Part shown: positions 2,544 to 38,817 of the stretch, one piece after another | How the letters are laid out: every line of letters starts with the position of its first letter | Position numbering within the stretch: position 1 is the first letter of the stretch | Notes under the pieces: model-generated | What the model was told of the DNA's origin: nothing | What the model saw: the letters and a program-made list of their open reading frames with translations, nothing else | The model's database searches: none | IMG/VR virus record: IMGVR_UViG_3300029480_000006 | Span: 1 to 44,924 of that record | Length of the DNA: 44,924 bases | Strand: one strand, 5' to 3' | Source of the DNA: a virus | Position numbers and translations under genes: made by a program

Positions 2544-3032
2544 GTGTATGGATGTATGCATATGTTCTTAAATTTTGGGAGTTTTTACAAAAGAACGCTA
2601 CAAACGTTCTTATTTTTGGCGGTTTTGTGCTTATTTTGTTGTGTATCTACTGGCTATTGTGCGGAAAATACGTATCTAATAACAGAGAGTCAGTTGACCA
2701 AATTAGAACAAAACTTGACCGAGCTACAGACACAAAACAAGACATTGCAGACACAGCTACAGCAATCAAAGATACAGTTGGAGAACTCCAAGACAGCATT
2801 GGAAAAGCAGAAACAGCAATCGACACAGCTACAGGAGCAAGTCAAAGATTTGACCAAATCCTTGGAGAATGCCAAGACATTATTGAGCAAATACGAAACC
2901 AACCAGCAAAATGATTATGCTATAGGAATTGGACTGGGAAATAATGGTGTGGCCATAAATGCAGATGTGAAAAAAACATGGCTATACATGGATAAAGACA
3001 CAGTTGCTATAGGCATAAAATATAAATTTTAA
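2544..3032 (+). CDS. Secreted/lipoprotein-like coiled-coil protein ending in a beta-rich aromatic C-terminus (o-spanin-like or OM-associated); start may be at the Met at 2562
   Basis: Signal-peptide-like N-terminus (KRTLQTFLFLAVLCLFCCVSTGYC), a Q-rich heptad coiled coil, and C-terminal ...AIGIKYKF. Fully overlaps 2552..2914 in a different frame. Confidence 0.45.
   Translation: MYGCMHMFLNFGSFYKRTLQTFLFLAVLCLFCCVSTGYCAENTYLITESQLTKLEQNLTELQTQNKTLQTQLQQSKIQLENSKTALEKQKQQSTQLQEQVKDLTKSLENAKTLLSKYETNQQNDYAIGIGLGNNGVAINADVKKTWLYMDKDTVAIGIKYKF
2552..2914 (+). CDS. Membrane-anchored coiled protein (i-spanin-like: N-terminal TM plus helical ectodomain)
   Basis: TM VLIFGGFVLILLCIYWLLC followed by an 80-aa polar, helical region. 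Overlaps 2544..3032 in another frame. Confidence 0.45.
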   Translation: MYAYVLKFWEFLQKNATNVLIFGGFVLILLCIYWLLCGKYVSNNRESVDQIRTKLDRATDTKQDIADTATAIKDTVGELQDSIGKAETAIDTATGASQRFDQILGECQDIIEQIRNQPAK

Positions 3033-6569: not shown

Positions 6570-7127
6570 ATGAATAAAATTAAACAAATGAGAGAAAAAC
6601 TAGGCTGGAGTCGTGCCAAGTTTTGCAGAGAGTTCGGTATTCCAATCCGAACTGTAGAAGATTGGGATAATGAGAGTATATCTAGTTATCCTAAAAGCTG
6701 GGTAGAAAAATTGATTTTAGAAAAGTTAGGAGAAATAGGTATGAAGAAAATGAATTTATATTTCTTTAAAGAAATAAATAAATTTTACGAAGGTAGAACA
6801 TTTTTACCAAAAAGATTAGATAAAATGTTTTATGATAAAACTGATGAAGAAGTATTGAATTTAAAATTTAGCATTGATGATGCTATCGTGATAGCAAATA
6901 GAGCACTTGAATTTGAACGTGAGATGTTTGATAACCAATATGAAAGACAATATGAGTATCTTGATGCTGATTTAAAACTTAAAAGAAAATATTTTGAATT
7001 ATTCAATAAAGAAGCAATGGATTTAAAAACCATTGATATGATAGTTGATATGGTAATATCTTGTGGCGGTGATGATTTAATAATTACAATAAATTTAAAA
7101 AAGAAAATTAAGGAGAATGTAAAATGA
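6570..7127 (+). CDS. XRE-family HTH domain protein with a C-terminal domain of unknown function
   Basis: N-terminus MREKLGWSRAKFCREFGIPIRTVEDWDN is a typical XRE HTH. Confidence 0.55.
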   Translation: MNKIKQMREKLGWSRAKFCREFGIPIRTVEDWDNESISSYPKSWVEKLILEKLGEIGMKKMNLYFFKEINKFYEGRTFLPKRLDKMFYDKTDEEVLNLKFSIDDAIVIANRALEFEREMFDNQYERQYEYLDADLKLKRKYFELFNKEAMDLKTIDMIVDMVISCGGDDLIITINLKKKIKENVK

Positions 7128-8017
7128 TTAAACTAATTAAAACTGAAAAAGGAATAAACATTGGAAAAGAAAAAAGATTGATTGTAGTAAATGATTTGTC
7201 TGAAATAAAAAATATAAATTTAGATGAAGATGAAGAAAAACTTACTTATAAATACTATAATGAAATAGATATTAATAATCCTGTATTAGATGATTCTATA
7301 AAACATTTGGAGGATTTATGGAAAAAATTAAAAGAAGAAATACAAAGCCTAACTTTATTTGAAGCAATAGAGAAAACGTTCTATTATATAGACTATATAT
7401 TTCGTTTAAATGATTCTTATAAAAATAATGAAGGTAAGATATGTCTACCATTAATACTAGAACCATACTCGGAAGAAGTAATTATTTATGTAATAGATAG
7501 CTGTATTAATGGCAAGATAAAAGGTAAATTTATAGTGGAAAAAGCCACAGATGAAATGATGTCATTTGCTAAAAGAAGAAACAACGAACTTGAATATGTT
7601 GATTGGAAAGATGATATTATTGATAATATTGCTAGTGATTTTCATAGTAATAGTTATTATGGAATTATAGCTATGGAAAAATTGATTGAATTAATCGAAA
7701 ATAAAAATCTTGAAGAGGCTATAGACAAGACGATTGACTTCTTATTTAATGATGAAGATATGTTGAAATATATATATTTATCAAGTTCAATGACAGAAAA
7801 TAAAGTTAGTCTCTCTTTTTATACAAATAGTCTAGGAGATAAATTTATTAAGAGAGAGCCTAAAAGCATTTATAGAGATTTTGTGATTTATAAGAATATC
7901 CCAGTTTATAAAATGGAAATTAGTGCATCTTTTTATGAAATAGAAATAGATGAGAATGGTTTTGATGTACGCAAAGAATTATCAAAAGAACAAATAGAAT
8001 TAGTAATAGGAAAATAA
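7124..8017 (+). CDS. Hypothetical protein (297 aa)
   Basis: ORF overlaps the upstream stop (ATGA), implying an operon. Confidence 0.5.
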   Translation: MIKLIKTEKGINIGKEKRLIVVNDLSEIKNINLDEDEEKLTYKYYNEIDINNPVLDDSIKHLEDLWKKLKEEIQSLTLFEAIEKTFYYIDYIFRLNDSYKNNEGKICLPLILEPYSEEVIIYVIDSCINGKIKGKFIVEKATDEMMSFAKRRNNELEYVDWKDDIIDNIASDFHSNSYYGIIAMEKLIELIENKNLEEAIDKTIDFLFNDEDMLKYIYLSSSMTENKVSLSFYTNSLGDKFIKREPKSIYRDFVIYKNIPVYKMEISASFYEIEIDENGFDVRKELSKEQIELVIGK

Positions 8018-8020
8018 AAA

Positions 8021-8046
8021 AAGAGCTACTATTTAGTAGCTCTTTT
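8021..8046 (+). terminator. Intrinsic terminator
   Basis: Perfect 9-bp stem agagctact/agtagctct followed by cttttg. Confidence 0.6.
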
Positions 8047-8164
8047 GATGTTATCTTACACTTTCCATAGGCTTATTCATATTCAAATACATTATAATGT
8101 TATAGTTAATAAATAGAAAGCGTAAGAACTGCATTAATATTTATATTTAAATTATACAACAAAA

Positions 8165-8193
8165 TTGACAATAGGTCTAATTTAATATATTAT
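8165..8193 (+). promoter_or_regulatory. Sigma70-type promoter (TTGACA-17-TATTAT) reading into an ORF-free structured region
   Basis: Consensus -35 at 8165-8170, -10 at 8188-8193. Confidence 0.5.
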
Positions 8194-8199
8194 AGAAGC

Positions 8200-8733
8200 G
8201 TAGACAATTTTCTTAACAATCAAATAAAAAGTTTTTAGAAATAAAAAAGACCAAACGTGTTGGTAGCACGATTGGTCTTGCCGAACAACCTACCGCAAAT
8301 AAGTTGTCCGAGTTGTTTTCTAAACTCATTATACTTATATATTAGCGATATGTCAACGACATATCATAAATTATTAATGATTTTAGGTAGGAATAGTAGG
8401 CACATTATAGCATTATCCCATTTTTCCAATGTCGGAAAAATGGTGAAGATGTTGTGATGTGTTTTTTAGTATCTAAAATCACTTGGCGGAATAAACGTCA
8501 AGAGCGTGCCTAGATGCTTATTCTAGGAGAGCGAGAGCTACACTTGGCGGAGTGTATAAATAAGTGGTTGCAGAAAGTAACCAACCGTATCACCAGCGGA
8601 GGCGGAAAATCGGTGGGGCATTTGGATATATTCTACTATCCAAATTTACCTAAGAGGGCGGAATGTTGTTAAACTCCCTTAATAAGCCTAAGTAAATAAG
8701 AACTCATGAGAGCCGTTTAGACGGCTTTTTTTA
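8200..8733 (+). ncRNA. Candidate large structured non-coding RNA (about 530 nt, promoter to terminator); strand and ends uncertain, may extend to about 9100
   Basis: No ORF >=60 aa on either strand in 8458-9109. GC clearly above the genome background. Many perfect hairpins, e.g. agaccaa..ttggtct, gatatgtcAACgacatatc, atttggata..tatccaaat. Upstream promoter and a downstream terminator. Confidence 0.4.
8711..8733 (+). terminator. Intrinsic terminator inside the ORF-free region
   Basis: Stem agccgt/acggct with loop ttag, then ttttttt. Confidence 0.7.
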
Positions 8734-9109
8734 TTTGAGTAATATATTTATATGGTTAAAAGTAGACAACGGTGGTTAAAGGCAACGTAAGTTGCAGATT
8801 GGGATTGTAGCATAAGCTATAAGCCGTATTAGGATAACATACGGAAACGTATGGTGGTTGGGGCAATTAAGTAACCATTAATATCCTACCTGTGTAAAAG
8901 CAGGAACTAGTAGAAAACTGGACTGGCAGACGCAAGAAAACCAGGCGTAAAAATATAGTTATATCTTTAGTAGAACGCTAAAGGTATAACTATACCTAGA
9001 ACACGGCTCCGCAATCCTCCCAAGCGTAATCGTTTTTGGGTTAGAAGTAAAGCCAAAGTTAGTGCCTAGTTTAAATAAATTTATATATACCAAGAAAGAA
9101 GATGAGTAG

Positions 9110-9298
9110 ATGCCAACGATAAAAGAAATAAAAGCTATAGCAAAAGATAGAGCTGTAAATCTACCAAAGAAAGCTAGAAAAGCCGATATGATACATATAT
9201 TGCAGGAGCAAGAGGGAAATAATCCTTGTTATGCTACTAAACAATGTAATATAGATGTGTGCCTTTGGTATAAAGATTGCCAAAAAGCTATAAAATAA
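9110..9298 (+). CDS. Small protein with Rho-N/HeH-like N-terminus and Cys-rich C-terminus
   Basis: MPTIKEIKAIAKDRAVNLPKKARKADMIHIL resembles the Rho N-terminal/HeH motif. Four Cys in the last 30 aa. Confidence 0.45.
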   Translation: MPTIKEIKAIAKDRAVNLPKKARKADMIHILQEQEGNNPCYATKQCNIDVCLWYKDCQKAIK

Positions 9299-9382
9299 TA
9301 GCCTGTATAAGCTGTTTAAAATCTTTGTAGGTATAAATACATTAAGATAAAAATAAAACAGCTATAAATGGATAAAAAATAA

Positions 9383-9422
9383 GAGCCTAACACTAATTTA
9401 TGTGCTAGGCTCTTTTATTATT
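9383..9422. terminator. Bidirectional terminator between convergent genes
   Basis: Hairpin agagcctaacac..gtgctaggctct flanked by an A-run and a T-run. Confidence 0.55.
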
Positions 9423-9669
9423 TTAGTACATATTCTTTTAATGCGTTAACTATATAATTATTTACGCTTCGACCATCAATTTTAGCTTTTTTTTCTATGA
9501 TTTCAAATAATTTTGGACCAATGACTATTAATTTCTTTTTTGTTTGTTTTTCATAATCAAGAATTTCTTTTAGATTTTTTTTATCTGTTATTACTTCAGG
9601 TTCTGGTTTGTTATCATCTAAACCTAATAGCATATCTGCTGGATTATCAAAAGTTTTAAAGTTGTCCAT
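9418..9669 (-). CDS. Ribbon-helix-helix partition/centromere-binding protein (ParG/omega-like)
   Basis: 83 aa immediately downstream of parA. C-terminus GRSVNNYIVNALKEYV is RHH-like (type Ib partition partner). Confidence 0.55.
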   Translation of the reverse strand: MDNFKTFDNPADMLLGLDDNKPEPEVITDKKNLKEILDYEKQTKKKLIVIGPKLFEIIEKKAKIDGRSVNNYIVNALKEYVLK

Positions 9670-10400
9670 TATTTATCCTCCAATATTTCTTTTACTAATG
9701 CTCTATAATCTCGACCAGCTGTAGAATATCTAGCATATCTAAATATGTCAGTCATTTTTGCTTGGGACTCTTTTATAGAAATGCTATCTCTTATTGTAGT
9801 ACTAAATACTTTTGTATTTAATCTTTTTGCTATATCAATAAGACTATTTAACATAGATTTTCCTAATATAGTTCGTTTGTTAAATCTAGTTATTAAAATA
9901 CCTTTTATACTAAGATTTTTATTAGATGTTTTTTGTATAGCTTGTACAGTTTTGTATAAATCAACTAAACCTTGCATTGGTAATAAATCTGCTGTAGTAG
10001 CAATTATTATAGAATTACTAGCAGTCAAAGCATTTAATGTAATTATTCCTAATGCTGGAGGAGTATCTATAATTACATAATCATAGTTGTTTTTCATCAC
10101 GCTTAAGATGTTTTTTAATACAGATTCCATACCAGATTTATTTTGTAGTAAGACTAGATTTTTCGATCCAGCAATAAAATCGTTTTCTATTGCTTCATCA
10201 ATTTTTATTTTACCAGTGAGTACATCTAAAATATCATGAGTATTTTTAGTTGCTTGCTGTAATAAAGTTAAATTGCATTGTGCATCTAAATCTAGCAATA
10301 ATACTTTTTTATTTTGCAATCTTAAACCTGCTGTTAAATTTTGGGCAGTTGTTGTTTTTCCAACTCCGCCCTTTTGATTTATTATAGAGATAATTTCCAT
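9669..10400 (-). CDS. parA: ParA/Soj-family partition ATPase (small type Ib ParA); true start is at the Met of MEIISIINQKGGVGKTT
   Basis: Deviant Walker A KGGVGKTT. RBS GGAGTG upstream of the ATG at 10400. The 48-codon N-terminal extension in the track ORF runs through AT repeats and is an artefact. Confidence 0.9.
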   Translation of the reverse strand: MEIISIINQKGGVGKTTTAQNLTAGLRLQNKKVLLLDLDAQCNLTLLQQATKNTHDILDVLTGKIKIDEAIENDFIAGSKNLVLLQNKSGMESVLKNILSVMKNNYDYVIIDTPPALGIITLNALTASNSIIIATTADLLPMQGLVDLYKTVQAIQKTSNKNLSIKGILITRFNKRTILGKSMLNSLIDIAKRLNTKVFSTTIRDSISIKESQAKMTDIFRYARYSTAGRDYRALVKEILEDK

Positions 10401-10535
10401 AATATCACTCCTTATATGTGGTATATATATATTATATAATATATATATAGAAATGCAATATATAATATATATAAAGTATATATAATATATATATACTTTA
10501 TATATATTATATAACACTATATATAGTGGTTTTTG
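10401..10535. repeat. AT-rich repeat/palindrome field upstream of parA (candidate parS centromere and promoter)
   Basis: Degenerate ATATATAAT-type repeats and the perfect palindrome aaagtatatat..atatatacttt. Confidence 0.6.
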
Positions 10536-10608
10536 CAAACTCAATCAAAGTCAGTCAGATTTTATAAAAAATCCATTTAGAGAATACATATTTTAAGCAA
10601 AATAAAAA

Positions 10609-13320: not shown

Positions 13321-14172
13321 ATGGCACTAGTGCAGAAAAAGGTATATGGAAAAAATTATATAGACCAGTTCCAATATTATAGTGGCAGATATGGAAAGAA
13401 TATACCTAATGGCCCTGCACTAGGTAAAACACCGCTGAAGCAGTTGCGTTACCAAGATAAAAAAGCAGAGCGTAACTGCCGATACAAAATTAATGAAAAT
13501 TTTGAGGGTGGAGATTTATTCTTAACGCTAAATTATCCACCACATAAAAAAATAGATATAAATGTGGCCAGAAAAAATATTAATACATTTCTAGACACAG
13601 TGAGAAAAATATATAAGCGAGAAGAAAAAAAGCTCAAGTATATTTACGTGGCTGGCATCACAAAAAAAGGTATGATACATTTCCACATTGTGATGAACAA
13701 GCACGATACTGATGTACTAACTAAAGCATGGCAAAGAATAGTTGGTACAGAAGAATGTAAATACCCAAGAGTAACGATAAGACATTTAGATTACAGTGGG
13801 GAATACAAAAAGCTGGCTTCTTACTTAATAAAAAATAGTAGGGAGCAATTTTACAGAAAGGAAAAGGTGCATAAGAAAAGATTTTGTGCATCTAAGAATT
13901 TAAAAATGCCATTAGTAACCACCAAAGTTATAAAAAATAATAGATGGTGGAACATGGCAACAAAAAAAGCCCCAAAAGGCTACATCATAGATAAAAATAG
14001 TATTTATGATGGTTATGGCTGGGCAGATAATGGTGGCTATTATGAATGTTGCAGAGTACAAAGAATAACCATGTATAGAATAGATAGCCAGTATCAGAAA
14101 TTTAAAAAGAGTAAGTACAGAAAGCCTTTGGAAAACATAGATGTACCAGAGGTAATAGAAGATTGGGGTTAA
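13321..14172 (+). CDS. rep: Rolling-circle replication initiator (HUH endonuclease Rep)
   Basis: Motif I FLTLNY, motif II HFHIVMN (HUH), motif III Y..ASYLIK (YxxK), in the canonical order. Confidence 0.75.
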   Translation: MALVQKKVYGKNYIDQFQYYSGRYGKNIPNGPALGKTPLKQLRYQDKKAERNCRYKINENFEGGDLFLTLNYPPHKKIDINVARKNINTFLDTVRKIYKREEKKLKYIYVAGITKKGMIHFHIVMNKHDTDVLTKAWQRIVGTEECKYPRVTIRHLDYSGEYKKLASYLIKNSREQFYRKEKVHKKRFCASKNLKMPLVTTKVIKNNRWWNMATKKAPKGYIIDKNSIYDGYGWADNGGYYECCRVQRITMYRIDSQYQKFKKSKYRKPLENIDVPEVIEDWG

Positions 14173-14502: not shown

Positions 14503-15243
14503 ATGAGTAATTATGGTGCATTTAATTTAAGACACTTAGCAAAAGGTCTTAAATATATAAATAACTTAAAGCTAGAAGAATTAGGAATAACAGCCAATCA
14601 AGTAAAAGTTTTAAAAAGCTGGCTTAAAATAACTGGTTTGAGTAATGGTAAGAAGTTAACATCACTAGGAAATATCATCAAAAAACATGATAGGTTTCTA
14701 GAAGAAGATATAACTATGCAAGTTCTTCACTACAAAATTTTAACTGCTGATAAAGACAGTATTTGGCAGTTTATATTTAAACTAGATGATTTTGATAAAC
14801 AGTATGTAATGAAGGAATTATCTGTTAAATATGAATTTAAGTCTGATTTAATAGTGGCAGATTTAAATGTATTGCTAAATATGTATATTCCTAAAATAGC
14901 AGAAAAAGAAAGCATGAATAGAGCTTTATTGCCATTAATAAGAAAACAGGGGGATTTCTATTGCAAAAGAGAGTACAAGCCTAATATATGGGTAGCATTA
15001 GCAATAATAATAGATAATCTACCAGAACCAACGCTAGATAATAATGCATCATGGTTAGAATTTAACACAATATATTCAACATTTAAAAATGTTTTTGGCT
15101 TGGAATATAGAACAGTGGAAGATATTTTATATAAATTACAAAATATGAGATTTGTAAAAATAAGAAAATCACATATAGAAATATCATGCAATTATACATT
15201 TTTAGATTGTATAGAAAAAGCATATAAAGAACTGGAGGTATAA
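14503..15243 (+). CDS. Hypothetical protein (246 aa)
   Basis: ORF with RBS. No domain recognised. Confidence 0.5.
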   Translation: MSNYGAFNLRHLAKGLKYINNLKLEELGITANQVKVLKSWLKITGLSNGKKLTSLGNIIKKHDRFLEEDITMQVLHYKILTADKDSIWQFIFKLDDFDKQYVMKELSVKYEFKSDLIVADLNVLLNMYIPKIAEKESMNRALLPLIRKQGDFYCKREYKPNIWVALAIIIDNLPEPTLDNNASWLEFNTIYSTFKNVFGLEYRTVEDILYKLQNMRFVKIRKSHIEISCNYTFLDCIEKAYKELEV

Positions 15244-15245
15244 AC

Positions 15246-15782
15246 ATGGATAGAAGTCTAAGAGGTCTTATCAATAATAAGAATGGAGCCTTATTTGAAA
15301 GTGAAATAATTGGCGGTTGCATGAAATATAACCTACAAGAAAGAGCCTTTATAGAAAAGACACCAGAACCATTTAAGGTATCAAAACCTTTGGAAAATGG
15401 ATTTTTTAAAGGTAGATTTACTTCTAAATCACAGCCAGATTTCAAAGGAACGCTCAAAGACGGATTATCTATAGTTTTTGAAGCTAAGTATACATCTACA
15501 GATAAAATTCGTGCAGATGTGCTTACAGAAAATCAAATGGAGTGCCTAGAAAAGCACTATAAATTAGGAGCTATAACAGGTGTAGTAATAGGAATACAAG
15601 ACCAATTTTTCTTTGTTCCGTGGAAGTTGTGGAGACTTGTTTACGAGCAATACAGACGCCAGTATTTAAGACCAGAAGATATACAAGCCTATAGAGTTAA
15701 ATTTAATGGCAACGTAAATTTTCTAGATTTAAAAAATGGCGGAAAAGTAGAACGAATAGAGGAATACAGGAGGGAAAATTGA
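15246..15782 (+). CDS. recU: RecU-like Holliday-junction resolvase
   Basis: GALFESEI, KTPEPFKV, DF.G....G.SIVFEAK and QFFFVPW motifs match the RecU family pattern. Confidence 0.7.
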   Translation: MDRSLRGLINNKNGALFESEIIGGCMKYNLQERAFIEKTPEPFKVSKPLENGFFKGRFTSKSQPDFKGTLKDGLSIVFEAKYTSTDKIRADVLTENQMECLEKHYKLGAITGVVIGIQDQFFFVPWKLWRLVYEQYRRQYLRPEDIQAYRVKFNGNVNFLDLKNGGKVERIEEYRREN

Positions 15783-15913
15783 TGATAAATAAAGATATTG
15801 AATATCTAAAGAAAAGAAGAAGAACGGAATTAATATGTAAAATAAGCCTACTATTAACAGCAATAGTAGGAACGATTATGGCGGTGAACTTAATTGCGAA
15901 TACTATTGATTGA
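15782..15913 (+). CDS. Small membrane peptide (43 aa)
   Basis: ATGA overlap with the recU stop, RBS AGGAGGG, and TM LLLTAIVGTIMAVNLIA. Below the track cutoff. Confidence 0.4.
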   Translation: MINKDIEYLKKRRRTELICKISLLLTAIVGTIMAVNLIANTID

Positions 15914-16796
15914 TATAGACAGCCATAATTTTCCTAATTTAGCATTGATGAAGCTTTCATCATATTTTAAAAGCAACAATCATAATGTTAGTTTTTTGAA
16001 ATTATCAAAAGATGATAAGAAAAACATATTACAAGGACAGATGCCTTTTTTCAAAGATGAATTTGATGGTATTTTGGCTGCTTGCGTCTTTGAAGAAAAT
16101 AAAGAAATAGCTAATGCACTTATAGATTATGGAGTTATTGTTGGCGGTACAGGATTAACTTTAAATCCTAGATGTAATTTACCATCCAAAATTGAAAATT
16201 CATATCCAGATTATGATTTATACAATATAAAAGATGTGGCATATGGATTTCTTACTCGTGGCTGTCCTCGCAATTGCCCATTTTGCATAGTTGGTAAAAA
16301 AGAAGGCAGTATATCAGTAAAAGTTGCGGATTTAAATCAATTTTGGAATGGTCAAAAAGTAATAAAATTACTAGATCCAAATCTATTAGCATGTAGTGAA
16401 CATATGGATTTACTAAAGCAACTTGCAAATTCTGGTGCATATGTAGACTTTACACAAGGTCTTGATGCTAGGTTAATAACAAAAGAGAATATAGAGGTTT
16501 TAAAGAAAATAAAAGTAAAAGCTTTTCACTTTGCGTGGGATAATCCACATGATGAAAAGATAAAAGAAAAGTTTTTATTTATAAGAAAGAATTTTAAGTT
16601 ACATCCTAGATATTTTAAGGTGTATGTACTTACGAATTACTGGAGTGATTTAAAAGAAGATTTAGATCCATATATAATGATTTTTAATAAATCAAACGCT
16701 CCCAAAGAAATAAAACATCTTCAACGTTGGGTAAATAATAAAATTATTTTCAATAGCGTTGATAAATTTGAAGATTACGATTATAAACGAGGCTAA
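15894..16796 (+). CDS. Radical SAM enzyme with N-terminal B12-binding/MTTase-like domain (about 300 aa; TTG start uncertain)
   Basis: CxxxCxxC at C124/C128/C131 (RGCPRNCPFC, nt 16263-16286). N-terminus ILLIDID...NLALMKLSSYF resembles a B12-binding or UPF0004 fold. Confidence 0.7.
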   Translation: MRILLIDIDSHNFPNLALMKLSSYFKSNNHNVSFLKLSKDDKKNILQGQMPFFKDEFDGILAACVFEENKEIANALIDYGVIVGGTGLTLNPRCNLPSKIENSYPDYDLYNIKDVAYGFLTRGCPRNCPFCIVGKKEGSISVKVADLNQFWNGQKVIKLLDPNLLACSEHMDLLKQLANSGAYVDFTQGLDARLITKENIEVLKKIKVKAFHFAWDNPHDEKIKEKFLFIRKNFKLHPRYFKVYVLTNYWSDLKEDLDPYIMIFNKSNAPKEIKHLQRWVNNKIIFNSVDKFEDYDYKRG

Positions 16797-33009: not shown

Positions 33010-36000
33010 ATGGCCAGAAATGATGTAACAATACGAATAAATGCTAGGGATAATGCCTCTGCAACCTTAAAGCAGGTGGCACAAAGTAGCCAAAGGGCAT
33101 CTAAAGCCTTAGATAGTTTAAGTGGATTAAAAAACTTTGCAATAGATACAGCTAGTATAACAGCAGGAATAGCTGGATTTGAAGCACTAACTACAGCCAT
33201 ACATAATACTATTGGAGCTGTAGGAACATTCTATACTAGCATGGAAACAAACCAAGTCGGTATGGCTGGTATCTTATCTAGTATGACCACATTAAAAGGA
33301 AATGCTTTAGATTTTAATACTGCTATGGGAATATCTGGCAGTATTATGAAAAAATTAAATGATGAAGCATTGAGAACAGCTGCAACAAGTGAAGAATTAG
33401 TAAATACATTTAGAGCTTTATTAGGTCCTGGTCTTGGTGCTGGTATGGATGTAGACCAGATAATTCAATTAACTACTACAGGTGTTAATGCGGTAAAATC
33501 TTTAGGTTTAGATGGTACGCAATTAGTCCAAGAATTAAGAGATTTAGTACAAGGTGGAATACAGCCTGCTAGTTCTACTTTAGCAACAGCTTTAGGTCTT
33601 ACAGATAAAGATATAGAAGCTGCTAAAAGTAGTTCTCAAGGCTTATTCAATTTCTTGATGGAACGTTTAGAAGGTTTTAGACAAGCGTCCGAGTATACAC
33701 AAAATACTTTTAAAGGCAAATTTGACCAAATAAAAGAAGGTCTTACTCGTGGTGCAGCAAAAGGTTTTGAACCTATATTTGAAGCTGTAAAAGCACAAAT
33801 GGGTGAAATAGGGAATTATTTACTGCCTGTTGATGAAACCACTAAACAAATACAAATAAATCCGCAATTTATAAATGACTTGCAATATATAGCGAATGAA
33901 TCACTTATAATTGGCGGAAATATAAAAGAAATGTTTACTCCTATAGCTAGTGTAGGCTTACCAGCAATTACAGCTTTTGGTAATGCTTTAGTATATGTGG
34001 GAGAAAATATACAATCTATAGGATTGGGGCTTGCTACATGGTATGTACTTAGAAATATATCAACATATTATGTAGATATAACAGCAGCCGCTACAGGAGC
34101 TACAACAGCAAATACAGCATTAGGAAAAGCAGTATTATCTGTAAAAACAGCATATACAGAGCAAGCTTTATCAGCCAGACAAACCTATACAGAAGAAATG
34201 TTAGCGGCACAACAAGCTGCAACAACAGTAGTAGCAGAAGAAGCAAGAAAAACAGCTGCAAAACAAGAAGCTAATAGAGCCCAAATGGTAGCAATGGCAC
34301 AACAAAAAACAACTTATGCCGCAGTGCAAAGAGCAACACAAGCAGGATATATAGAACTGGCAAATACATTACAAATGCTTAAAGTTCAATATATGGAACT
34401 TGGTGTAAGTGCAGAACAAGCAGGAGCTATGCAAGTACAAGCGGCAAAACTTGCCAAAGCAGGGCAATTCGAGTTAGCACAGCAAGTAATAGCAACACAA
34501 CAAGCTCATATAAAAAATGCAGTAGCAGCAGAAGCTTCATCTGTAGCAGCTGTTTCAGGTGCAGGAAAAGCAAAAAGTGCTGTTAAAACATTGGGTAGTG
34601 CCGTGTTATCATTGGCTGGCGGTTGGTTAGGTGTAGCAGTAGCTATTGGATATGCTACATATCAATTAGCAGATTATATACAGCAACAAGGAAGAATTCA
34701 ATCATATAATCCTAATACTATAATTAGAAAAAATGCAGATGGTACTTATTCTAAACAAATAGAAATGGGACCTTTTGGACTTATAAAAGGTTGGAAATTA
34801 TTAAGTCCAGGAGAAATGGAAGAACATAATTATTGGACTCAATGGAACGAAAAAAATCAAAAAAATGCTGTAGGAAAGCCATGGTTACCATGGTCTACAG
34901 ATAATATAAATGATATAGGAAAAGATGTAGGAAATATTGCTGATACAATACAAGGATTATCAACAAAATTTAATACAACAGATGATGAAGAAGAAAAGAA
35001 AAAGAAAGAAAAAGAAAAAAAACTTTCGCAAAGTGATATAAAGAGCCAATTATTATCAGAAGCAGGAGCATATGCTCCTTTGATTGAAATAGCTGCACAA
35101 GATGCAGGAATAGCTCCTGAAATATTAGCTGCTTTAGTAAAAAAAGAGTCAACTTTTAATCCAAATGCAGTATCACCATCTGGCCAACATTTTGGATTAG
35201 GTCAAATATCAACAGCAGCTGCAAATGAAGTAGGTGTATATGGAAACTTATTCGATCCACAGACTAATTTAGTTGCTTCTGCAAGATATCTAGCCAAAAT
35301 GATGAATATGTTTGGCGGTAATCTAGAATTAGGATTAGCAGCATATAATGCTGGTGCAGGAAATGTACAAGATTATGGCGGAATACCACCATTTGCAGAA
35401 ACCCAAGATTATGTAGCTACGATAATGGGTTATTTAAAAGGTGAAGGTCTATCTGGTACAGGAAATAAATATATTACGCAATTTGCAAAAGAAAAAGCAG
35501 AACAATTAAAAGCTTTTCAGCAATTGCAGGCTGAATTAAATAGTAAATTAACAGAAGAAACAGGTACACAATACCAAGTAGGTATGCAAAAGATAAATGA
35601 AGAAATACAAAAATATCAAGAGCAAACCAGAAAAATGAGTAATTATGGTATAGATGTATCTGGGCTAAATGAACAAATAAAACAATTACAAGACTTAGAA
35701 AAAAATAAAGTAATAGAAAAATGGCGAAAAAGTTGGCAAGATTTAAAAGATAGTATTGCAGAAACAAACAGTGAATTAACAGGCAATAAACTTGCAAACT
35801 ATAGCATAGAATATACTAAACAATTAGATAAACTAGATAGCGAACGCAAAGAAAAAGAAAAAGCTGTAATGCAAGATCCAAATGACGCAGTAGCAAAAGC
35901 TGCTGTTGATGAATGGTACAATCAACAAAAAGAGCTTTTTCTAAAGGAAAAAAATGATAAAGTAAGGGAATATCTATTAAAAGAATATGACCTTGAAGTA

Positions 36001-36855
36001 GAACATAATAAAAATTTAATTGAATTAGAAAATAATACAGTAGAACAAACTAATGTTTTAAATAGAGAAGTTTTAAATAAAAAATTAACGTATCTACAGA
36101 CAGAATTAAATAGGGCAAAATTAACAGCCCAGCAACGAATAGACCTAGAAAATCAAATTTACGAAACTACTAGGGCAATAGATGAAATAGACTCCCAAAA
36201 TTTACTTACAGCATGGCCAGTAGCATTAAAAGAAATGCAAAGAGATACTACAAATTACGTAGAACTAATAGAAAGTGCTTTTGATAGCATAGAAGATAAT
36301 ATAACAGATAATTTTACTAATATGTTAAATGGGGCAGAAAGCTTTAGTGATGGTTTTGTAGATATTTTTGAAAATATGGCTAAAGAAGTACAATCTGTAG
36401 TGATGAAACAAATTGTACAACAAAGTATTATGAAGCCATTATTTAGTTGGCTTGGAAATATGATGGGCATGGGTATAGGTGGTGGTGGAGATACACTAAC
36501 TTATATTGAAGGAACAGGTTTTACTTTTAGAGCTAGTGGTGGACCAGTAGAAAGTGGCTCTCCTTATATCGTAGGGGAAAAAGGAAAGGAACTATTTATA
36601 CCAAATACAGATGGAACAATAGTACCAAACTTTAAACTAAGTGATTATACTGCTACTAATAAAGTAGTAACTCAAACATCTACTCCAAATGTAACAGTAA
36701 ATGTAATCAATCAATCTGGTCAAAATGTAACAGCTAAGCAAGAAGTAAAATCCTCTAGCCCAGATAATTATGTAATAAACGTAGTATTACAAGCGATAAC
36801 ACAAAATAAAGGCGGAATGAAAGATGCTATATCTGCTGTAGCAGGAAGGAGTTAA
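33010..36855 (+). CDS. Tape measure protein with internal lytic transglycosylase (SLT) domain
   Basis: 1281 aa. ES.F.P.A.S..G..GLGQIS and AYNAGAGNV motifs near residues 700-790. Confidence 0.95.
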   Translation: MARNDVTIRINARDNASATLKQVAQSSQRASKALDSLSGLKNFAIDTASITAGIAGFEALTTAIHNTIGAVGTFYTSMETNQVGMAGILSSMTTLKGNALDFNTAMGISGSIMKKLNDEALRTAATSEELVNTFRALLGPGLGAGMDVDQIIQLTTTGVNAVKSLGLDGTQLVQELRDLVQGGIQPASSTLATALGLTDKDIEAAKSSSQGLFNFLMERLEGFRQASEYTQNTFKGKFDQIKEGLTRGAAKGFEPIFEAVKAQMGEIGNYLLPVDETTKQIQINPQFINDLQYIANESLIIGGNIKEMFTPIASVGLPAITAFGNALVYVGENIQSIGLGLATWYVLRNISTYYVDITAAATGATTANTALGKAVLSVKTAYTEQALSARQTYTEEMLAAQQAATTVVAEEARKTAAKQEANRAQMVAMAQQKTTYAAVQRATQAGYIELANTLQMLKVQYMELGVSAEQAGAMQVQAAKLAKAGQFELAQQVIATQQAHIKNAVAAEASSVAAVSGAGKAKSAVKTLGSAVLSLAGGWLGVAVAIGYATYQLADYIQQQGRIQSYNPNTIIRKNADGTYSKQIEMGPFGLIKGWKLLSPGEMEEHNYWTQWNEKNQKNAVGKPWLPWSTDNINDIGKDVGNIADTIQGLSTKFNTTDDEEEKKKKEKEKKLSQSDIKSQLLSEAGAYAPLIEIAAQDAGIAPEILAALVKKESTFNPNAVSPSGQHFGLGQISTAAANEVGVYGNLFDPQTNLVASARYLAKMMNMFGGNLELGLAAYNAGAGNVQDYGGIPPFAETQDYVATIMGYLKGEGLSGTGNKYITQFAKEKAEQLKAFQQLQAELNSKLTEETGTQYQVGMQKINEEIQKYQEQTRKMSNYGIDVSGLNEQIKQLQDLEKNKVIEKWRKSWQDLKDSIAETNSELTGNKLANYSIEYTKQLDKLDSERKEKEKAVMQDPNDAVAKAAVDEWYNQQKELFLKEKNDKVREYLLKEYDLEVEHNKNLIELENNTVEQTNVLNREVLNKKLTYLQTELNRAKLTAQQRIDLENQIYETTRAIDEIDSQNLLTAWPVALKEMQRDTTNYVELIESAFDSIEDNITDNFTNMLNGAESFSDGFVDIFENMAKEVQSVVMKQIVQQSIMKPLFSWLGNMMGMGIGGGGDTLTYIEGTGFTFRASGGPVESGSPYIVGEKGKELFIPNTDGTIVPNFKLSDYTATNKVVTQTSTPNVTVNVINQSGQNVTAKQEVKSSSPDNYVINVVLQAITQNKGGMKDAISAVAGRS

Positions 36856-36857
36856 AA

Positions 36858-37268
36858 ATGTTATATTTTCCTAATATATCACCACCAATGTATCCGCTAA
36901 AAGAGGAAATAGATAATCCTGTTATATCATCCGATACCGAAAATGGAATGAGAATAACAAGAGCTAGATATACTAGATTAAAACGAAAATGGACACTTCA
37001 ATGGGACGCTCTAAGAAACACTAAAGAGCGTCCAGAATATGAAATGTTAAGAGATTTTTATATGCGTAAAACATTGGGCGGAGCAAATGCTTTTTTATGG
37101 ACTTATCCACCAAAAAGAAAGCAAAAAAACACAGTTTATATGCAAGAAAACTTTGATTTAAGACTAGAAGGAAAACAATTTTTGGTAAGATTTATAAGTG
37201 ATACATTTAGTTTTGAAGAAAAATTACCGAATATATGGACTGGTTCTGTACAGATAGAAGAAGTATAA
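36858..37268 (+). CDS. Minor tail protein (gpM-like)
   Basis: 136 aa directly after the tape measure. Lambda order M-L-K-I-J follows. Confidence 0.55.
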   Translation: MLYFPNISPPMYPLKEEIDNPVISSDTENGMRITRARYTRLKRKWTLQWDALRNTKERPEYEMLRDFYMRKTLGGANAFLWTYPPKRKQKNTVYMQENFDLRLEGKQFLVRFISDTFSFEEKLPNIWTGSVQIEEV

Positions 37269-37270
37269 AA

Positions 37271-37297
37271 AAAGACTGCTATAAAAAGCAGTCTTTT
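37271..37297. terminator. Bidirectional intrinsic terminator
   Basis: Perfect 8-bp stem aagactgc/gcagtctt flanked by A- and T-runs. Confidence 0.6.
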
Positions 37298-37781
37298 AAT
37301 TTGAGAGTTTATTATTATAAAACATCAATGTAGCAACATTATTTCTAAAAGATAAGATAATAGAATTATTATCTTTTTCCCATGTATATTGAGCTATTGT
37401 ATAATCCTGGTATTTTTCTGTTGGAGTACCAAATTTATCTATAGCATAATAATAAATTTTAGAAAACTTAGCTGAAGTATCGTCAAGATTGTTTTCAGCA
37501 GAGAAAAATATGCAAATAGAAGAAAGTTTATTATTTGTAAATGTAGCATATATTTCTTTATCTGCTTTACAATCGGCAATAGTTATATCTTTTAAAATTT
37601 TATATTTATTGTTATCTTGAACTACAGGATATTTAGCACTGATATCTTCAATTGTTTCACCATAATATAAATCTAAATCGCTTATTTGTTCTTTTGGTGT
37701 ATAGTTTTTATAAAAAAATATACCTAATAGAGAAATAATAAGAACAACGGATATAATTATTATTTTTTTCATATATATCAC
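37296..37781 (-). CDS. Secreted/membrane-anchored protein, a minus-strand moron inserted within the tail-tip operon
   Basis: Signal anchor MKKIIIISVVLIISLLGIFF. Opposite orientation to the surrounding tail genes. Confidence 0.55.
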   Translation of the reverse strand: MIYMKKIIIISVVLIISLLGIFFYKNYTPKEQISDLDLYYGETIEDISAKYPVVQDNNKYKILKDITIADCKADKEIYATFTNNKLSSICIFFSAENNLDDTSAKFSKIYYYAIDKFGTPTEKYQDYTIAQYTWEKDNNSIILSFRNNVATLMFYNNKLSN

Positions 37782-37814
37782 CTCGATAAAATTATAGCAT
37801 AAGGTGGTGAGGTT

Positions 37815-38429
37815 ATGCTACCATTATCTTTGGCGGCTAAGATAGAAAAAAACAAAATAGCTACAGATAGCTGTTGGATAACGTTATTAGAGATTTTTAT
37901 AGAAGGTCAAGATTCTATAAAGATTTGTAGTAATAATGTGGATGTAACATGGAATAATGCAGTATGGATTGCTTTCCCATTTACTGTAGACCAAGTAACA
38001 CAAAATAAAACAGAAATACCTACAGTTCCTATAAAAGTATCTAATATAACACGTGTAATAGAGCAATATATAGAACAATATGGCGGATTGGTAGGGACAA
38101 AAGTTATATTGCGTGTAATAAATAGTAATTTCTTAGAAAATGCAGTAGCAGAAGTTGAGGAAACTTTTACAATAGAAAGCACTACAGCAGATGCACAATG
38201 GGCAACATTTAATCTAGGTGGTTCACTCCCAGTCAAAATGAGATTTCCATTTAGACGAATTTTAAAAGATTGGTGTCCATTTGTATATAAAGGTATAGAA
38301 TGTGCAGCTACAAGTGATTTAGAAACTTGTCCGCATACATTAAAAGGCTGTAGAGAGCGTAATAATAGTAAAAGATTTGGCGGAGAATATTCTATAAGTA
38401 CAGGAGGTATCTATGTATCAAACAAATGA
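37815..38429 (+). CDS. Minor tail protein L-like with C-terminal four-Cys cluster
   Basis: C-x9-C-x9-C-x6-C (WCPFVYKGIECAATSDLETCPHTLKGC). Position after the gpM-like gene. Confidence 0.7.
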   Translation: MLPLSLAAKIEKNKIATDSCWITLLEIFIEGQDSIKICSNNVDVTWNNAVWIAFPFTVDQVTQNKTEIPTVPIKVSNITRVIEQYIEQYGGLVGTKVILRVINSNFLENAVAEVEETFTIESTTADAQWATFNLGGSLPVKMRFPFRRILKDWCPFVYKGIECAATSDLETCPHTLKGCRERNNSKRFGGEYSISTGGIYVSNK

Positions 38430-38817
38430 TTTTACAGACCTAATAGGAATACCGTTTAAAGACAGAGGCAGAGATTTAAATGGTTTAGATTGTTGGGGAT
38501 TGGCAAAAATAGTTTTTAAAAAATATGGTCAAGATATCCCAGATTATAATATTTGCTGTGAGGATATAACAAATATAGATAAAACTATAGATAAACAAAG
38601 GAGCTATTGGCAAAAAATAGAAAAGCCAGTAGCTCCTTGTTTAGTTGTTATGCATTTAGGCACTAAATTTTGTAATCATACAGGAGTTTATATTGGCAAT
38701 GGCAGATTTATTCATACCAGAGATAAAGTAGGAGTAAATATCGACCGCATAGACTCTATAAACTGGAAAAATAGAATAGAAGGATTTTACTTGCCACCTA
38801 AGAAGGTGAAAACATGA
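38413..38817 (+). CDS. Tail protein K-like NlpC/P60 peptidase
   Basis: Catalytic Cys in LNGLDCWGL and His in NHTGVYIGNGRFIHT. Confidence 0.75.
   Translation: MYQTNDFTDLIGIPFKDRGRDLNGLDCWGLAKIVFKKYGQDIPDYNICCEDITNIDKTIDKQRSYWQKIEKPVAPCLVVMHLGTKFCNHTGVYIGNGRFIHTRDKVGVNIDRIDSINWKNRIEGFYLPPKKVKT

Follow-up and report, generated by a model that had tools for sequence, protein, structure and literature searches.

What purpose is served by about 1 kb of DNA without a substantial open reading frame (ORF) in the genome of a temperate phage? The question is raised by positions 8018-9109 of the IMG/VR virus record IMGVR_UViG_3300029480_000006, all 44,924 nucleotides of which were analysed here (the window), and for which an earlier note had proposed a large structured RNA. 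We find that 8163-9065 is a conserved non-coding module which, in place of one long RNA, comprises a sense promoter, a sense RNA of ~530 nt, an antisense RNA of ~80 nt, and a second structured domain past an internal terminator (Table 1). That this is a genuine sense/antisense structured-RNA module we regard as virtually certain. As to its function, we give about an even chance, by analogy with known systems, to an RNA-based plasmid replicon with countertranscript copy control that would need no Rep protein.

The ORFs within 8018-9109 are all short (66, 52, 44, 38 and 36 aa) and, in agreement with the note, none of 60 aa or more is found in 8458-9109. The two longest, at 8257-8457 and 8514-8672, are both disrupted in relatives by frameshifting indels or a stop codon; this disruption in other clades indicates that the region is not coding, and no conserved coding frame emerges among the homologues. 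The GC content of 8163-9065 is 0.37-0.39, compared with 0.309 for the whole window and 0.22-0.29 for the immediate flanks, and because it ranks 7th among 1769 windows of 700 nt it is raised above background, as the note had it, yet not unique. The + strand folds far more stably than dinucleotide shuffles both in 8200-8735 (z = -8.48) and in 8736-9110 (z = -4.79), with 0 of 100 shuffles equally stable in either segment. Every stem that had been listed is present (8247-8279, 8347-8365, 8620-8645, 8838-8853 with its GAAA loop, and 8954-8994 with 17 bp), the sigma70-like promoter scores 11/12 in a consensus scan, and the same scan places the intrinsic terminator, previously put at 8711-8733, at 8708-8729 plus a T-run.

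Table 1. Window coordinates of the RNA module, its parts and its neighbours.
Feature	Positions	Strand	Remarks
Upstream boundary	8017; 8019-8046		Stop of 297-aa gene; then bidirectional terminator hairpin
Sense promoter P+	8165-8193	+	TTGACA-17-TATTAT, 11/12
Sense RNA1	8200-8736	+	~530 nt; start near 8200 predicted from promoter; ends at intrinsic terminator
Antisense promoter P-	8356-8328	-	TTGACA-17-TATAAT, 12/12; convergent, ~120 bp downstream
Antisense RNA	8236-8321	-	~80 nt; predicted ends; complementary to RNA1 nt ~40-120
Antisense hairpin SL1	8281-8311	-	First hairpin; TTGCCGAACAACCTACC paired to variable partner via several G.U
Antisense terminator hairpin H0	8247-8279	-	Then U-run 8236-8246
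17-mer TTGCCGAACAACCTACC	8278-8294		In sense/antisense overlap; forms SL1 3' arm
RNA1 helices, first part	H3 8378-8389/8470-8481; H4 ~8397-8465; H5 8482-8502; H6 8509-8527	+	H4 is a variable hairpin
RNA1 helices, middle	H7 8530-8539; H8 8540-8555; H9 8566-8582; H10 8591-8615	+	
RNA1 helices, last part	H11 8620-8645; H12 8654-8680	+	
Terminator H13	8708-8736	+	Stem 8708-8716/8721-8729, T-run; divides RNA1 from domain 2
Structured domain 2	~8750-9065	+	~300 nt; starts ~20 nt past terminator
Domain 2 helices, first part	R1 8782-8795; R2 8801-8825; R3 8830-8888	+	R3 is a three-way junction
Helices within R3	R4 8838-8853; R5 8854-8878	+	R4 has GAAA loop
Domain 2 helices, rest	R6 8889-8904; R7 8907-8921; R8 8930-8948; R9 8954-8994; R10 9010-9026	+	
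Possible H-type pseudoknot	8923-8926/8941-8944	+	In R8 region
Downstream boundary	9110		Start of 62-aa gene
62-aa HeH/Rho_N-like protein	9110-9298	+	Four conserved cysteines; Pfam Rho_N E 5.5e-4, below curated cutoff
Putative centromere-binding protein, 83 aa	9418-9669	-	Convergent with RNA module
ParA ATPase	9669-10544	-	AAA_31/ParA E 7e-44; convergent with RNA module
HUH REP_ORF2-G2P	13321-14172		Sole Rep-like gene in window; downstream of cI-like and Bro-N genes

Relatives were found through the flanking proteins and conserved RNA words, on contigs of 35-55 kb. The block occurs at 83-94% identity in nine IMG/VR contigs, the same nine in each of the repeated scans, and in twelve contigs from metagenomes, of which at least three carry a human-gut label. 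More divergent are clades B (L039-L042) and C (L035-L038), reached through homologues of the 62-aa protein, and profile searches added clade D, a metagenome-assembled genome (MAG) contig of an uncultured Bacilli bacterium (L044), and clade E, the complete 46-kb plasmid of Megamonas funiformis JCM 14723 (record positions ~44,535-45,160). The family so defined has five clades and, apart from one human faecal isolate, is known mostly from contigs of human-gut metagenomes. Within it the non-coding block is better conserved than the neighbouring genes; amino-acid identity in relatives is down to 48-63% for ParA, 33-36% for the ParB-like protein and 71% for the upstream 297-aa protein. BLAST homology to relatives with other upstream genes begins at 8163, the -35 of P+, and P+ itself is found in all five clades (10-11/12, spacer 17 nt). 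A hairpin with a T-run also occupies the position of H13 in all five; its stem sequence differs among clades, and no both-sided changes are counted in the aligned register of the curated helix. The Megamonas copy lies in a gene-free zone of ~1.5 kb and keeps both promoters, both terminators and the RNA core.

Comparative evidence for the structure comes from an alignment (A4) of 21 sequences representing the five clades, for which we curated 26 local helices with 152 pairs. Of the cells in these pairs 94.2% are paired, a proportion that falls to 34-43% if the 3' partners are displaced by 1-3 columns; compensatory changes occur in 57/152 pairs, and the covariation score is 0.304, compared with 0.04-0.06. 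On four of five measures 0/500 shuffles reach the observed values, and on the fifth (further standard pair types) the observed value lies below the shuffles. The covariation among homologues that the note had called for thus supports the structure, and with it the proposal of a large structured non-coding RNA with its own promoter and terminator on a phage genome. Compensatory pairs number 6/7 in H5, 4/4 in H10, 6/9 in H11, 5/7 in R3 and 5/6 in R4; there are 1 to 6 apiece in H5, H6, H7, H10, H11 and H12 and 2 to 5 apiece in R1, R3, R4, R5 and R6, while H3, H4 and H8 are conserved but show no both-sided change, and in H9, a mixed case, 82-90% of cells are paired.

The departures from Watson-Crick pairing also assign the helices to a strand. 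Such cells are 140 G.U and 5 A.C in H3-H13 and 159 G.U and 27 A.C in domain 2, an asymmetry (299 versus 32 outside H0) that places those helices on the + strand. In H0 the counts on the + strand are 0 G.U and 14 A.C, equivalent to G.U on the - strand, so H0 is fully paired on the minus strand only, where 100% of its cells pair and 7/12 pairs show compensatory change. The note was therefore right to see a minus-strand T-run beside this hairpin; the strand ambiguity that it drew from this disappears, since the hairpin ends a separate minus-strand RNA. Two long-range pairings suggested by RNAalifold were rejected: clade C and the local stem H10, which covaries, both contradict GCCGA (8280-8284)/UCGGU, and AGCCGU/ACGGCU (8822-8827 with 9003-9008) is broken in clade B, L012 and L024. 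An exhaustive search for further covarying helices gave many two-state candidates that are inseparable from phylogenetic noise; two loop-loop candidates were retained as tentative.

Both hexamers of the antisense promoter are invariant in clades A-D, the 17-nt spacer between them varies in sequence and never in length, and the Megamonas plasmid has a 12/12 promoter at the equivalent position. The antisense RNA is predicted to fold into two hairpins (z = -5.3). For the first of these, SL1, the folding free energy in 17 distinct variants is -14 to -16 kcal/mol on the minus strand and -2 to -9 on the plus strand, so that the antisense RNA itself is under structural selection and the sense target is comparatively open. 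The 17-mer TTGCCGAACAACCTACC is invariant in clades A-D with the exception of L040, where a single substitution is compensated in SL1. Its CCUACC could, judging from the sequence, pair alternatively with GGUAGG at 8386-8391, overlapping the 5' arm of H3. In the Megamonas plasmid five repeats of ~10 nt, CTACTAAAAG, stand in place of TTGCCGAACAACCTACC; they are in tandem (L043:15330-15390, record ~45,330-45,390), are followed by three copies of TTTATAG, and could be protein-binding iterons or repeated RNA sites.

Within the main clade nucleotide diversity (pi) peaks in the 5' third, at 0.17-0.28 over 8160-8460 with two conserved stretches excepted, compared with 0.01-0.15 for most of the remaining module. 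Six variants with distinct antisense hairpins come from one IMG/VR dataset. We also note that the loop of H0 (window 8260-8266, A4 columns ~136-142) reads TTGGTAG in some members and its reverse complement, CTACCAA, in others, an inversion that would alter kissing-loop specificity yet preserve sense/antisense complementarity. A hypervariable 5' third together with loop inversion is the pattern expected of an incompatibility determinant.

Domain 2 contains several GNRA-capped hairpins besides the 17-bp hairpin. It is kept in clades B, D and E though no co-directional gene follows it there, and for this reason we do not regard it as a leader. The H11 loop (8631-8636) and 8910-8915 form a candidate contact of 6 bp that reads UUCUAC/GUAGAA or CUUAAC/GUUAAG according to clade; it is tentative because the covariation has two states, and chance alone yields many candidates of this kind in this tree.

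Searches against known families place the RNA outside all of them. Rfam 15 gives no match to the whole window at gathering score, no credible match to 7900-9400 at E<=10, where only chance-level hairpin matches appear, and nothing relevant at E<=0.05 in the equivalent regions of four relatives (L036, L042, L043 and L044). The ROOL or GOLLD class suggested in the note is accordingly not borne out by covariance models in the window or these relatives, and with these two families OLE, HEARO and raiA were ruled out on the same grounds. Group I and II introns, RNase P and tmRNA likewise have no Rfam match, and the flanking genes are complete and differ among relatives. The ARRPOF motif has no match at E<=10 in 7900-9400 and none at E<=0.05 in the four relatives, and ARAGORN identifies neither a tRNA nor a tmRNA gene anywhere in the 44.9 kb. 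With the region as BLASTN query, 50,697 phage records give no match and 72,556 plasmid records yield only the HeH gene in Megamonas; the Megamonas copy as query returns only its self-match, and an exact-pattern scan of 185,579 species genomes is without a match. The RNA family is absent from Rfam and from any paper that we found. In kind the module resembles antisense-controlled RNA-based replicons; it departs from them in its size, its bipartite layout with an internal terminator, its host range, and its sharing between phages and a conjugative plasmid.

The module adjoins parA/parB in all five clades despite changes of gene order: in the main clade and clade C the order is RNA, HeH gene and convergent parB-parA; in clade B the HeH gene heads a parA-parB operon with the RNA convergent to it (HeH-parA-parB, RNA); in clade D the RNA is followed by convergent parB-parA and a divergent HeH gene; and in the Megamonas plasmid parA-parB-like genes are followed by inserted TnpB and methylase genes and the convergent RNA, with the HeH gene placed after a serine recombinase. 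The 62-aa HeH protein is therefore probably a linked neighbour, not part of the RNA unit. The Megamonas plasmid is conjugative and encodes a MobA/MobL relaxase as well as a type IV secretion system of the Trb/VirB kind; Pfam detects no Rep family among the hypothetical and relaxase proteins scanned, and the remaining genes carry annotations unrelated to replication. The window itself represents a temperate phage of siphovirus type: its products include large terminase, lambda-type portal, protease-capsid, tail tube, tape measure, and tail proteins of the L-like and J-like kinds, besides a cI-like repressor, Bro-N and RecU. No integrase is present among the tested window ORFs, and this, together with ParA and its small partner, indicates that it is probably a phage-plasmid. 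The phage context described in the note holds for the genome, yet the setting of the module is plasmid maintenance and not phage-specific biology, as the module adjoins parAB and is common to a conjugative plasmid.

Several further observations concern this neighbourhood. The HeH family (alignment A3) comprises 10 clusters of 59-68 aa with an invariant MPTIK N-terminus, an HeH/Rho_N-like helix pair and invariant cysteines C40, C46, C51 and C57, always on elements with parAB of this type; searches of PDB and NCBIfam with the HeH protein and its neighbours found no relative and were uninformative. A relative without the RNA, L046, is a mobilisable-plasmid-like contig from a Candidatus Alectryobacillus MAG; its HeH gene and parA are separated by an iteron-like array and the gene of a winged-helix protein. 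The array (L046:6148-6370) consists of at least six direct repeats of GGAGGAAAAAAAAGTGGGTAAT and lies beside a 471-aa HTH_36 protein and a MobA/MobL relaxase. Fst-like type I toxin ORFs with ribosome-binding sites, MEDLLLSFAVSVVAGVVANYLCKWIDGRK and MLFDFFIAVMAGIVSGVAVHYICKWLDS, occupy non-coding gaps beside the HeH-parAB genes at L039:5440-5590 (-) and L046:6590-6710 (-), and an annotated Fst toxin is found in the Megamonas plasmid (record 35208-35315); maintenance functions in general seem to gather around the par genes. In L044 an intergenic stretch at 6750-6833, close to the HeH-parA region, holds an AT-rich, near-perfect palindrome of ~80 nt that gave spurious miRNA matches and may be a centromere or other DNA site. 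A cargo block on the opposite strand, beside the RNA/par region, is common to L035:1710-4807 and the Megamonas record 35689-38784 (proteins of 539 aa and 69 aa, SSB, one of ~105 aa and ArdA, with VbhA/Fic nearby); its sharing is evidence for recent exchange between clade C phage-plasmid-like contigs and the Megamonas plasmid, and is a hint of Megamonas-like hosts.

A replicon under countertranscript control is suggested by the convergent sense/antisense pair with its hypervariable interaction region, by the strict linkage to partition genes and the insulation of the module by terminators on both sides, and by its presence in phage-plasmids and in a conjugative plasmid without a recognisable initiator. 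As in a ColE1-type layout, a short convergent antisense RNA is complementary to the 5' region of a longer sense RNA, and as in a non-RepA prophage origin, an ORF-free region lies directly beside parAB in a temperate phage without an integrase among its tested ORFs. Also in favour are the place of the only Rep-like gene in the window, downstream of the cI-like and Bro-N genes in a presumed early lytic operon, and the winged-helix protein and iteron-like array that L046, which lacks the RNA, has at the site equivalent to that of the module. There is no sign of an iteron/Rep replicon in the window: 7900-9400 contains no direct-repeat family beyond chance two-copy matches, and no Rep gene adjoins the module in the window. 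Precedents make a Rep-free RNA-based origin at this position credible. In non-RepA parABS mycobacteriophages an ORF-free transcribed region of ~600 bp beside parA is both necessary and sufficient for replication (Wetzel et al. 2020, PMC7157519), and a 1-kb gene-free region with an ARRPOF motif suffices for replication of the Fusobacterium nucleatum plasmid pKH9 (PMC5737381).

On this replicon model 8163-9065 would be the self-contained maintenance module of a plasmid-type prophage, in which the sense RNA serves as a replication-initiating or pre-primer RNA and the antisense RNA as the regulator of copy number and incompatibility. The antisense RNA would bind the poorly structured target containing UUGCCGAACAACCUACC and so redirect the co-transcriptional folding of the sense RNA, possibly by freeing GGUAGG (8386-8391) so that helix H3 forms. 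The primer would be supplied by the terminator region or by read-through RNA, domain 2 would form part of the read-through form of the sense RNA or, alternatively, fold as a displaced DNA strand that loads the lagging-strand machinery, and the neighbouring parAB would segregate the copies. The size and conservation of the fold suggest a role of the RNA beyond priming; it might, for instance, bring in the host polymerase or primosome or hold it in place, or assemble into a higher-order structure. A bolder version, which we put forward only tentatively, is a new class of bipartite 'ribo-replicon' of ~0.9 kb in which a large, tertiary-structured RNA with its countertranscript would be the sole initiator of vegetative replication that the element encodes; tailed phage-plasmids and conjugative plasmids of human-gut Bacillota would trade it, along with parAB, as a cassette.

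A number of points weigh against a replicon. The replication role rests on position and analogy, and the internal intrinsic terminator is unlike ColE1-type pre-primers. No promoter above 8/12 precedes domain 2 in any clade, so that it must derive from read-through or a weak promoter, or act as DNA. The bases of the CCUACC/GGUAGG switch are invariant and provide no covariation for it. Many of the covariation events are not independent, as the family is narrow, with five clades. GC skew in the Megamonas plasmid tracks gene orientation and gives no origin signal, and its uncharacterised proteins could hide a new Rep. In the phage-plasmids, REP_ORF2-G2P could serve both lifestyles.

The main rival is a large ornate RNA with some other role on mobile elements, be it assembly or scaffolding in the manner of ROOL and GOLLD or defence or anti-defence, with the antisense RNA tuning its level. 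Such an RNA would be in keeping with the size of the module, its wealth of GNRA loops (GAAA, GUAA, GCAA), its junctions of several helices, the possible pseudoknot and loop-loop contacts, and the variable cargo genes that adjoin it, such as ArdA and Fic/VbhA, as well as with carriage by phages and a plasmid, a feature shared with ROOL and GOLLD (PMC12286853). We nevertheless consider it unlikely, since no Rfam family matches and no tRNAs are adjacent, strict linkage to parAB and a plasmid without detectable Rep argue for maintenance, and a countertranscript from convergent promoters is the classic layout of plasmid copy control. It is also conceivable, though improbable, that part of the module, especially 8750-9065, acts as folded single-stranded DNA, either as a single-strand initiation or primosome-assembly signal on the displaced strand or as a single-strand origin for rolling-circle replication by REP_ORF2-G2P. 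Domain 2 lies past a strong terminator without a convincing promoter, the phage encodes an HUH-type Rep, and plasmid-associated motifs possibly act as single-stranded DNA according to Weinberg et al. (PMC5737381); covariation and strand asymmetry are blind to the difference between an RNA and the displaced strand because their polarity is identical. More typical of RNA, however, are the 159 G.U cells of domain 2, among which several are invariant, and short helices capped by GNRA loops, and the candidate covarying contact with the H11 loop would make both parts one RNA. A role as folded DNA would in any case be compatible with the replicon model and not opposed to it.

Convergent promoters and a terminator within the transcript also recall antisense-controlled leaders or attenuators such as those of pT181, pIP501 and prgQ/Anti-Q of pCF10, which here would act on the HeH gene or parAB; the module of the main clade is directly followed by a gene whose ribosome-binding site is strong, and RNAalifold pairs AUUUACCU (8643-8650) with the ribosome-binding site of the HeH gene. 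We hold this to be quite improbable, given that the module of clades B, D and E has no co-directional gene after it and faces the 3' end of parB, that ~850 nt of conserved, tertiary-looking structure far exceeds what attenuation needs, and that the terminator is ~390 nt away from the antisense target. A type I toxin-antitoxin locus is hardly credible, and the same holds for a protein gene that is degraded or split: an antisense RNA paired with a structured mRNA would match the layout of hok/sok or Fst, and Fst-like toxins do occur near parAB in relatives, but the 66-aa and 52-aa ORFs lack ribosome-binding sites and do not survive in other clades, where indels or stops interrupt them, the substitutions follow helix pairing and not a codon pattern, and no hydrophobic peptide ORF was seen on reading the sequence of the region.

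Comparison with characterised systems shows that the likeness of the module to ColE1 RNAII/RNAI and to the origins of non-RepA parABS mycobacteriophages is one of analogy and not of homology. The ColE1 sense RNA primes Pol I after RNase H has processed it within an R-loop at the origin. The module shares with it a structured sense RNA of ~0.5 kb with its own promoter, a convergent short multi-hairpin antisense RNA that covers the 5' part, the lack of an adjacent Rep protein, variable antisense loops suited to incompatibility specificity and, in the main clade, a small protein gene downstream (here 62 aa). It differs in having no sequence or Rfam similarity to RNAI/RNAII, an antisense RNA of two hairpins and ~80 nt where that of ColE1 has three hairpins and 108 nt, a sense RNA that ends at an intrinsic terminator with a second structured domain after it, low-GC gut Bacillota rather than Enterobacteria as hosts, and a small protein that is HeH/Rho_N-like and not consistently linked, whereas Rom is a four-helix bundle. 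With the origins of the non-RepA cluster A mycobacteriophages (PMC7157519) it has in common an extrachromosomal prophage with parAB and neither integrase nor RepA, and an ORF-free region of 0.6-1 kb beside the partition genes for which RNA-initiated replication is proposed. In contrast, the module has no detectable DNA similarity to any record of the phage collection, its orientation to parA differs, its function is inferred from context where theirs is experimentally shown, and it has a covariation-supported structure and a defined antisense RNA, neither of which is described in the sections of that paper considered here.

Other structured RNAs of mobile elements are less similar in layout. 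ROOL and GOLLD are also ornate, several hundred nucleotides long and found in Bacillota phages and prophages, and tRNA genes are often adjacent to them in phage or prophage DNA; the module has no covariance-model match to either and no neighbouring tRNAs, and is set apart by its partition-gene linkage, antisense partner and internal terminator. ARRPOF, GEBRO and PAGEV are likewise structured, GC-enriched non-coding elements on plasmids of low-GC anaerobes, at 223-349 nt compared with ~900 nt for the module, which is moreover bipartite and has a countertranscript (PMC5737381). The systems of pT181, pIP501/pAMbeta1 and pCF10 prgQ/Anti-Q share with the module convergent promoters on Gram-positive mobile elements and a short antisense RNA that acts on a nascent sense RNA with a terminator downstream; they control a rep or conjugation mRNA shortly downstream, whereas the module has no conserved regulated ORF and its structured RNA is far larger.

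Elsewhere in the window, an operon at 14503-16796, downstream of the REP_ORF2-G2P gene, encodes DUF4007, RecU and a radical-SAM-like protein. Two overlapping + strand ORFs in different frames, 2544-3032 and 2552-2914, each have matches of ~50% amino-acid identity in L011 and L012, and one of them matches the coiled-coil DUF7365; they represent either a real overlapping gene or a compositional artefact.

If the replicon model is correct, protein-free, RNA-initiated and antisense-controlled replication would reach beyond ColE1 plasmids and mycobacteriophages to phage-plasmids and a conjugative plasmid of gut anaerobes, and would account for the replication of such elements that have no recognisable Rep. 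As a compact cassette of origin and copy control, the module would also be of use in building vectors for gut Bacillota that are poorly tractable, Megamonas among them. The RNA would join the few known families that are large (>800 nt) and rich in covariation, which makes it a good target for structure determination. Finally, the hypervariable antisense loops and the loop inversion offer a testable case of an incompatibility determinant diversifying among related elements.

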